A stretch of 16,427 bases of DNA from Vulcanimicrobiaceae bacterium (GCA_046262595.1 JBHEMM010000017.1:1-16427); one strand, 5' to 3'; shown: positions 2,354 to 3,736, counted from the stretch's first letter. Translations and numbers: made by a program. The notes: generated from the letters alone by a model not told the origin.

Positions 2354-2425
2354 TGGGCCCGGTAGGATTCGAACCTACGCGCAACCAGTTATGAGCCGGC
2401 CGCTCTACCGCTGAGCTACGGGCCC
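2354..2425 (-). tRNA. tRNA with CAU anticodon, most likely tRNA-Ile2 (lysidine-modified); CCA not encoded
   Basis: Reverse complement folds as a cloverleaf: GGGCCCG TA GCTC AGCGGTA GAGC G GCCGG CTCATAA CTGGT TGCGC GTAGG TTCGAAT CCTAC CGGGCCC A. G1-C72 is paired, so it is not an initiator. C4-G69, C5-G68, C29-G41 and A73 fit IleRS/TilS determinants. Confidence 0.93.
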
Positions 2426-3736
2426 CCGTGCCGATCGAAAGCAGCGCTTCCCCGGATAACGCGACGCCGAGCCCAGCTCTTCCTCGATCGCCATGAGACG
2501 ATTGTACTTCGAAATGCGCTCGCCGCGCGAGAGGGACCCGGTCTTGATCTGTCCGGCGGCGGTTGCAACCGCGATGTCGGCGATCGTCGTGTCCTCGGTT
2601 TCGCCCGAGCGGTGCGAGATCACCGTTGAATAGCCCGCTTGGTGCGCCATTTGTACCGCGTCGAGCGTTTCGGTGAGCGTGCCGATCTGATTCACTTTGA
2701 TCAAAATCGCGTTGGCAATGCCCTCGCGAATGCCGCGCTGTAAACGCGCCGTGTTCGTCACGAAGAGATCGTCGCCGACCAGCTGGCATTTGGAACCGAT
2801 CGCGCCCGTGAGCTGCGCCCAGCCCTGCCAGTCGTCTTCCGCCAAACCGTCCTCGATCGAAACAACGGGATATTCGGCGATCAGCCGTTCGTAGAAAGCA
2901 ACCATCTCCGCGCTGCTGAACGCGCGATCTCTGCCAAGCGGATAGTACTTGCCGTCTTCAAAGAATTCGGTCGCCGCGGAATCCAAGGCAATCGCGACGT
3001 CTTTGCCGGCGTCGTAGCCCGCACGCTTGATTGCCTCGAGCAGCACGTCCATGGCTTGATCGAGCGTGTCCAACCGAGGCGCATATCCGCCCTCGTCGCC
3101 GACGGTCGTCGGCTGTCCGCGTTCTTTGAGCAGCTTGCCGAGCGCGTGAAACACCTCGGAGCCGCAGCGGACCGCTTCGCGAAATGAGACCGCACCGCAC
3201 GGAACGATCATGCATTCTTGAAACTGCAGCGCGCCGTCGGCATGTTGTCCGCCGTTGATCACGTTCATCATCGGCACGGGCAGCGTCGCAGCCGACGGAC
3301 CGCCAAGATACCGGAACAGCGGCAGCGATAAACTGCTCGCCGCGGCGCGGGCGACGGCAAGCGAAATGCCCAGCAGCGCGTTCGCACCGAGTTTGCTCTT
3401 GCCGGGCGTGCCGTCGAGCTGCACGAGCTGCTCGTCGATCGCGCGCTGCGCGGTTGCATCGAGCCCTTCGAGCGTCGGCCCGAGAACGTCGTTGACCGAA
3501 GCGACGGCTTTGAGCACGCCTTTACCGTTGTAACGCCCTTTGTCGCCGTCGCGCAGTTCGACCGCTTCATGCGCGCCGGTCGAAGCGCCCGAAGGAACCA
3601 TCGCTTCTTCAACGGATCCGAAGCTCGTCGCGACGCTCACGGCAAGCGTCGGGTTCCCGCGCGAGTCGAGCACTTCGCGTGCATGAACGCCTTCGATGAG
3701 CGGCCGGCCGCCGCCGCGCAGCGATTCGATCGACAC
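2405..3736 (-). CDS. eno: Enolase (phosphopyruvate hydratase)
   Basis: Motifs [52 protein letters not shown] start preceded by GGAGAAG in the end of ndk. Confidence 0.99.

Follow-up and report, generated by a model that had tools for sequence, protein, structure and literature searches.

Known junctions of protein-coding and tRNA genes

In animal mitochondria, messenger RNAs (mRNAs) are released by the excision of transfer RNAs (tRNAs), the protein-coding genes adjoin tRNA genes or share sequence with them, and a stop codon can be lost or shortened through the cut. In Escherichia coli, where a spacer of 14 nucleotides (nt) lies between secG and leuU, a single cut by ribonuclease P (RNase P) is followed by a half-life of the secG message of less than 30 s (Mohanty and Kushner; PMC2241853). 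For the segB-tRNA-Arg junction of phage T4 and those of the F-TflI/II/IV genes within the tRNA cluster of phage T5, the authors suggest that such a cut lowers expression through decay of the mRNA and an unfinished protein (PMC2330249). A message cut ahead of its stop codon is, further, the textbook substrate of transfer-messenger RNA (tmRNA) and its partner SmpB (PMC3985003, PMC3968760). Here we analyze a related arrangement on a bacterial chromosome, in a stretch of DNA of 16,427 nt from a Vulcanimicrobiaceae bacterium (GCA_046262595.1, JBHEMM010000017.1:1-16427; hereafter, the window), in which the sole enolase gene, eno, ends at a TAG inside the gene of a likely tRNA-Ile2. This state most likely came about through a deletion of about 33 bases, and it is probably a side effect of close gene packing that is tolerated, rather than a control device.

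The locus resembles secG-leuU in that a protein-coding gene is followed by a tRNA gene on the same strand with no promoter or terminator between them, and several relatives have spacers of 6-32 nt at this junction as compared with the 14 nt of secG-leuU. Unlike the latter, in which the secG stop lies 14 nt before the cut and the message is complete, the eno stop lies 18 nt past the predicted cut, so that the processed message would be stop-less, the processing itself being in our case a prediction. With T4 segB and the T5 F-Tfl genes it shares a stop codon that lies on the tRNA side of the cut. However, those are selfish phage nuclease genes, for which low expression may be wanted, whereas the gene considered here is the only chromosomal enolase, and overlaps of 10 or 21 nt are found at this junction in many free-living species. 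A cysteine-rich, HNH-like gene encoding 183 amino acids (aa), which ends in a tRNA-Pro gene of the same genome, comes nearer to the phage case than eno does. In contrast to the usual substrate of tmRNA-SmpB, the stop-less eno message would not be an accident but a programmed, routine product of making a tRNA.

A literature search by title and the beginning of the abstract, with subscription journals outside its coverage, returned the phage T4 and T5 precedent and no bacterial chromosomal gene with its stop inside a downstream tRNA; the literature on Eremiobacterota and tRNA, searched by title and the beginning of the abstract, held nothing relevant. The present case shows the repeated gain and loss of a gene-tRNA overlap within one bacterial family, in two registers, the phage T4 and T5 genes and secG-leuU being the known precedents. 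Gene finders and annotation pipelines usually forbid or trim protein-coding genes that overlap tRNA genes, and such cases are therefore easily mis-called.

The enolase reading frame closes inside a tRNA gene

The window is part of a metagenome-assembled genome (MAG; G000) of a soil bacterium, with 2.42 Mb in 122 contigs, a G+C content of 62.7% and about 90% completeness. The preliminary description of this DNA, made from the sequence alone, had claimed that eno has no stop before the tRNA, that the two genes share 21 nt (2405-2425) on the same strand and that the TAG is formed by nt 19-21 of the tRNA, all of which is borne out by the coordinates of the open reading frame (ORF) and those given by ARAGORN and Rfam (Table 1). 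ARAGORN also calls the tRNA-CAU, at 2353-2425, and its CCA end is not encoded. Over bases 1-21 of the tRNA the eno frame reads GGG CCC GTA GCT CAG CGG TAG, which translates to the tail GPVAQR followed by the stop.

This frame encodes an enolase: the matches to Enolase_N (PF03952; 183.9 bits) and Enolase_C (PF00113; 409.7 bits, E=9e-123, profile positions 3-294 of 296) are full length and above the Pfam cut-offs. It is the sole enolase match in the genome, and shows 62-83% identity to the eno genes of all 40 relatives compared. The Enolase_C match stops at residue 434 of the 443 in the product, and hence the six tRNA-encoded residues lie outside the enolase fold; ahead of them, the tail FRSAR aligns with the usual end of the family, F[RK]ALR followed by a stop. 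Additionally, the 48 nt ahead of the tRNA contain zero stops in any of the three frames, so that a single-base insertion or deletion error could alter the length of the overlap, but not abolish it. Upstream, the ndk stop lies 2 nt ahead of the eno GTG start, and ndk is likely the first gene of an ndk-eno-tRNA transcription unit.

Table 1. Features of the eno-tRNA locus and of two further genes of the same genome that end inside tRNA genes (positions in the window unless a contig is named)
Feature	Location	Strand	Basis and remarks
ndk (nucleoside diphosphate kinase)	3739..4227	-	ORF; Pfam PF00334, E=3.9e-55
eno (enolase), 443 aa, GTG start, frame closing within the tRNA gene	2405..3736	-	ORF and Pfam
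tRNA, anticodon CAU	2354..2425	-	Rfam RF00005, 69.5 bits against a gathering score of 29; model positions 1-71, full length
Stretch common to eno and tRNA, 21 nt	2405..2425	-	Direct reading; 5' strand of the acceptor stem, bases 8-9, D-arm to base 21
eno stop codon TAG, tRNA bases 19-21	2405..2407	-	One of two conserved tRNA TAG triplets serving as eno stops
Final eno-only codons	2426..2458	-	Junction 2425/2426 is the site of the stop codon and a 23-128 nt spacer in relatives
1458-aa ORF ending at bases 19-21 of tRNA-Leu(CAA), tail AGEVAER	G000 C44:6947-11384 (L176:248-4624, tRNA after)		Pfam amino-acid permease 171-553, GH35 623-726
183-aa cysteine-rich HNH-like gene ending at bases 8-10 of tRNA-Pro(UGG)	G000 C28:17676-18291 (L177:377-928, tRNA after)		CANCHRRK motif; no Pfam match

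On the far side of the tRNA, the minus strand carries a 163-aa lipoprotein-like ORF (1822-2313) without a Pfam match.

Recurrence of the overlap in two registers

The succession of eno and tRNA-CAU, often with tRNA-Glu after it, is conserved across the class, and the tRNA is identical or nearly so in 302 of the 353 genomes of the order. A frame-independent pattern search of all 353 genomes for the Y[PA]G codons of eno at 10-40 nt from the tRNA start gave 37 places in 36 genomes, and reading the DNA at these matches shows that eno ends inside the tRNA in 33 of the 36. The exceptions are G345 and G362, with a TAG 6 nt before the tRNA, and G015, where what matched is a remnant of the eno 3' end next to the tRNA. 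A further 20 genomes of genus g46 yielded one more overlap (G142), along with two spacers of 42-47 nt, 12 of 364-1193 nt and five genomes without eno within 1.8 kb. The overlap is thus seen in 34 of the 353 genomes of the order, in eight genera, the window's genome included. This count is a lower bound; G243 and G245 are unpublished genomes, the latter being the only case in genus g69. Two of the overlap genomes, G100 and G123, are each a single contig. In a sample of one locus per genus (30 loci), the overlap is found in two (the window and G021), a stop followed by 23-128 nt in 11, a distance of 236-1392 nt in six and no such tRNA within about 1.5 kb in 11, while among 80 metagenome contigs three overlap and five more have a spacer of only 6-7 nt. 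In all, junctions were read at 97 genome loci from 89 genomes and on the 80 contigs. In the comparison with related genomes that the preliminary description had proposed, the overlap recurs across the order and is not conserved within the genus, where G002 and G003 keep a stop.

The eno stop of the overlap genomes always coincides with a conserved TAG of the tRNA, of which two are used, at bases 8-10 and at bases 19-21. The first of these registers (-10; overlap of 10 nt, tails GL or GP before the stop) is found in 20 genomes and the second (-21; overlap of 21 nt, tail GPVAQR) in 14. The third frame, which has no stop anywhere inside the tRNA, is never used among the 34 overlap genomes, and frames lacking an early stop in the tRNA have presumably been removed by selection. 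G093 (-21) and G121 (-10) have the same eno tail and differ by 2 nt immediately ahead of the tRNA. The restriction to two frames suggests that universally conserved tRNA bases serve as built-in back-up stop codons, by virtue of which a mere deletion could create such an overlap and leave the gene ahead of it functional. Further, the relatives, free-living bacteria whose genomes are of an ordinary size (2-5 Mb), supply a natural series at one junction, in which spacers from 128 down to 6 nt are succeeded by overlaps of 10 and 21 nt; this series allows one to ask how completion of a protein is balanced against excision of a tRNA, and what routine load of stop-less messages tmRNA has to bear.

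Reassignment of TAG was also considered and is ruled out by the eno genes of the relatives, which end with TAG, TGA or TAA. In one genome (G144; L050, G144:C14) eno falls into four tblastn pieces through frameshifts and its tail differs by 1 nt, likely on account of an error-prone assembly rather than because it is a pseudogene.

Gain and loss of the overlap

The history of the junction was followed on a quick maximum-likelihood tree of eno DNA with 73 rows, 62 of them with a visible tRNA, from which the variable tail was excluded; L050, L064, L078 and L086 were left out as too partial, and L042, L056, L057, L062 and L067 as duplicates or fragments. Across the 62 rows the presence or absence of the overlap requires at least eight state changes, with four for the -10 register and five for the -21 register. 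Once acquired, the state can outlast speciation, since the -10 overlap is kept in a clade of 14 species (branch support, SH-aLRT, of 96) and the -21 overlap in a clade of six.

In the window's own lineage, the fallback offered in the preliminary description, namely a recent loss of the native stop, has held up. Within the genus, G002 has a stop and a spacer of 30 nt, G003 a stop and 787 nt, and G001 about 168 nt, a stretch that was left unread, from the end of the eno match to the tRNA. In an alignment of the two, the stretch from the YPG codons to the tRNA is 33 nt shorter in the window than in G002. As the same-genus relatives are without the overlap and the window is the shorter by these 33 nt, the stop and spacer appear to have been lost recently in this lineage.

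Insertions of unrelated genes are frequent at this junction, which looks like a hot spot for them. A set of g46 genomes (L077:591-1695 of G092; also L079, L087, L092 and L095) carries there, between eno and the tRNA and on the opposite strand, a RES toxin with an Xre-type antitoxin, which sets eno and the tRNA 1191-1193 nt apart. In G015 (L062, i.e., G015:C17:1-3300, with L013), a leftover eno 3' end, reading YAGRNAFLQRWGL and then a stop, still adjoins the tRNA. The intact eno is located some 4.5 kb off, with a 921-aa gene with cyclase, NB-ARC and TPR regions in between; it seems that the inserted DNA supplied a new end for eno.

Identity of the tRNA

The CAU anticodon is common to three tRNAs that ARAGORN finds in this genome, on contigs C25 and C26 and in the window. 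That on C25 has an unpaired 1:72 position, as in the initiator, and its anticodon stem is of the GGG/CCC type. The C26 tRNA, with C3:G70 and U4:A69, we take to be the elongator tRNA-Met, partly by way of the identity elements of E. coli. The tRNA of the window has instead a paired G1:C72, along with G3:C70, C4:G69 and C5:G68. Its antisense strand scores 37.7 bits (E=1.1e-5) against Rfam RF04354, which is presumably the family opposite plastid trnI-CAU, as opposed to 21.2 and 16.6 bits for the other two; the score lies below the gathering score of the family and serves for comparison only. By contrast, a blastn comparison of the tRNA with annotated E. coli genomes was uninformative on its identity, the best matches being to tRNA-Asn at 73%.

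The lysidine-forming enzyme TilS discriminates tRNA-Ile2 from tRNA-Met by G3:C70 and C4:G69 in B. cenocepacia and by the pairs 4:69 and 5:68 in E. coli (PMC11947777), although the requirements of the TilS of the present lineage may not be those of these two species. A TilS is encoded in the genome, with its N-domain (TIGR02432) scoring 158 bits against a cut-off of 93.6. Taken together, the acceptor pairs, the RF04354 comparison, the features of the other two CAU tRNAs and the presence of TilS make the window's tRNA likely a tRNA-Ile2 of the lysidine type, as the preliminary description had supposed, and that assignment is probably correct. ATA codons are rare in this genome (3.1 per 1000 codons and 6.8% of the isoleucine codons in 521 long ORFs), and eno itself has none.

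Transcription and predicted processing

Relatives without the overlap point to how the tRNA may otherwise be transcribed. In the 48-nt spacer of three class-level relatives (L026, L027 and L028), TTGACG is followed after about 18 nt by TATACT, with the -35 box lying over the eno stop TGA; this is promoter-like and would make a good sigma-70-like promoter for the tRNA. The g46 genomes with an insert likewise have a promoter-like motif, GGAGATTATACACT, about 70 nt upstream of the tRNA. In the overlap genomes, where the non-overlap relatives have such motifs, there are eno codons alone, and the overlap of the two genes leaves no room for a promoter or terminator between them. A consensus scan of positions 1800-4700 of the window found no sigma-70-like site, and no terminator-like site between eno and the tRNA. 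On account of the missing spacer motif, we infer that ndk, eno and the tRNA are made on one transcript. Across 29 overlap genomes, the 3' end of eno varies at synonymous sites no less than the gene as a whole (1.09-1.32 as compared with a gene mean of 1.09), giving no sign of a conserved hidden element, and the predicted RNA fold of the junction is no stabler than those of shuffled sequences (z = -0.04).

In the scheme we propose, a deletion of about 33 bases would have taken out the old stop codon together with the spacer. Ribosomes would finish enolase on the uncut precursor, at a TAG that each copy of the tRNA must keep for its own fold, and as long as a ribosome stands there the acceptor stem and the D-arm would be unable to form. 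Once the tRNA has folded, RNase P would cut at base 1, freeing the tRNA and leaving an eno message without a stop codon. This message may then be quickly degraded from its 3' end, as that of E. coli secG is after the leuU cut, while tmRNA-SmpB would release the ribosomes trapped on it. The cost would be kept small by a low demand for the tRNA; indeed, as AUA codons are rare, little tRNA-Ile2 should be needed.

The genome encodes tmRNA (119 bits), SmpB and rnpA, the protein of RNase P. The earlier argument that cleavage by RNase P would deprive the message of its stop follows logically from the sequence, and the rescue system that such a message would call for, tmRNA with SmpB, is encoded. After the predicted cut, the eno message would end in ...GCA CGG in the window and in ...GCG CG where the -10 register is used. 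Completion of a stop by an A-tail can be ruled out, since A's added to either end make no stop codon. Herein lies a difference from mitochondria, where polyadenylation completes U or UA to UAA, whereas the cut end of eno gains no stop; bacteria, moreover, have tmRNA. Regular tagging and degradation of enolase, should it occur, would represent a novel type of cost to a core enzyme, or of control over it.

The genes smpB and tilS are adjacent, and the pair occurs twice in the assembly (C8:26478-27516 and C81:1986-3016), with an in-frame TGA in one smpB copy; this is probably a matter of MAG redundancy or strain mixture.

By-product or control device

Two other genes of the genome, unrelated to eno, also end inside tRNAs in the same two registers (Table 1), and this argues for a general tolerance and against a switch between glycolysis and tRNA supply. 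The 1458-aa ORF, possibly two genes in one frame, has relatives in which tRNA-Leu(CAA) follows after a spacer of 8-32 nt in seven of 12 loci, and the same 21-nt overlap is seen in G004. Homologues of the 183-aa gene occur in seven of 25 other genomes, often in multiple copies; six of 12 loci overlap tRNA-Pro by 10-11 nt and others adjoin tRNA-His. Together with its tRNA this gene looks like a nuclease-plus-tRNA cassette of the T4 segB and T5 F-Tfl kind, on bacterial chromosomes.

Against this background, the alternatives to a tolerated by-product may be weighed. That the junction of the window is an artefact of assembly or binning, with the real organism having a stop and a spacer like its same-genus relatives, is very improbable. 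The genome is, to be sure, a MAG in 122 contigs, none of the three same-genus relatives has the overlap, assemblers can pass from one strain to another at shared repeats such as tRNA genes, and a search for a run or contig of the same species gave no confirmation. Yet the junction lies at the 5' edge of the tRNA, outside the shared sequence, such that spanning reads are needed there; the difference from G002 is a clean 33 nt and not a homopolymer slip; there is no stop ahead of the tRNA in any frame; and the same register with the same GPVAQR tail is found in 13 other genomes and in the metagenome contig L096. Indeed, the occurrence of this junction type in 33 other genomes makes it more than chance or an assembly slip. 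A different objection grants the overlap and has the tRNA made mainly from a promoter of its own within eno, in which case the overlap would matter only for read-through transcripts. In favor of this, the window has TACAAT or TATAAT at the conserved KYN codons, 79-103 nt upstream of the tRNA, as do 23 of 31 overlap genomes against 22 of 46 others, and the resulting leader would resemble in length that of the motif in the g46 genomes with an insert. However, there is no matching -35 box and the scan described above found no promoter-like site, so that the internal promoter which the preliminary description had suggested looking for did not emerge from it. Moreover, the TA[CT]AAT hexamer is largely set by the amino acids and is also present in genomes with a spacer motif of their own, its enrichment is weak and confounded by kinship, the synonymous sites there are not more conserved, and transcripts from upstream would run into the tRNA anyway. 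We therefore regard this arrangement as unlikely.

The preliminary description had itself favored a device that couples glycolysis to tRNA supply. In this form, the overlap would be selected because ribosomes and RNase P compete for each precursor, tying enolase output, the life of the eno mRNA and the supply of tRNA-Ile2 to translation. The overlap has arisen several times, it persists in clades of 14 and six species, only the two registers with an early stop are seen, and the authors of the phage T4 segB study proposed down-regulation by such a cut (PMC2330249). On the other hand, the overlap is absent from all three same-genus relatives and is scattered on the tree, with losses, register switches and insertions of unrelated genes at the junction; the eno 3' end is under no extra sequence constraint; and the same two registers recur where unrelated genes of this genome run into tRNA-Leu and tRNA-Pro, which is more in line with a general feature of tRNA sequences than with a tie to glycolysis. 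Repeatedly gained, lost and re-registered as it is, the overlap does not support the proposed coupling, and a selected control device appears quite unlikely. A stricter version, in which the tRNA is gated by translation, is distinctly improbable: a terminating ribosome would keep the precursor unfolded and RNase P would free tRNA-Ile2 only as translation of eno slackens, whereupon the cut would remove the stop, tmRNA would tag the unfinished enolase and the message would be destroyed. Were it true, enolase output, message life and the provision of a tRNA for rare codons would be joined to the translational state by a built-in switch that had evolved repeatedly within a single bacterial family.

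The reading of the overlap as a tolerated by-product has points against it as well, to which the hexamer at the KYN codons belongs. The shared transcript, cleavage by RNase P, what becomes of the stop-less message and the tagging by tmRNA are steps that we infer from sequence. With an RNase P as fast here as at secG-leuU, the stop would be cut off most eno messages at an early point, which would be costly for a central enzyme, and a tolerated by-product gives no explanation of how this is avoided. The persistence of the overlap in 14 species could equally mean that it is useful. Additionally, kin are not independent, and the counts given above therefore overstate the number of events. As for the window's junction, it is without independent read or contig support: a search of public runs gave only small shares (0.05-0.07) and listed no RNA run with this stretch; contigs from four public runs contained only conserved pieces of the eno genes of relatives and the shared tRNA, none of them spanning the junction; and among the 80 metagenome contigs the best was 78% identical to the window and none came from the same species. 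With regard to processing and rescue, no small ArfB-type release factor was seen in the genome, which has only two long ORFs with an RF-1 domain, and RNase P RNA was not found in this roughly 90% complete MAG. The latter gap is taken as incompleteness, because rnpA is present and the RNA is found in all five complete relatives, four of them with the overlap.

The tRNA set of the genome

ARAGORN finds 46 tRNAs in the genome; tRNA-Glu is not among them, though relatives have one right after the tRNA considered here. The set further includes two calls of tRNA-SeC (C22 and C62) and one with a four-base anticodon (C28:31507-31604).

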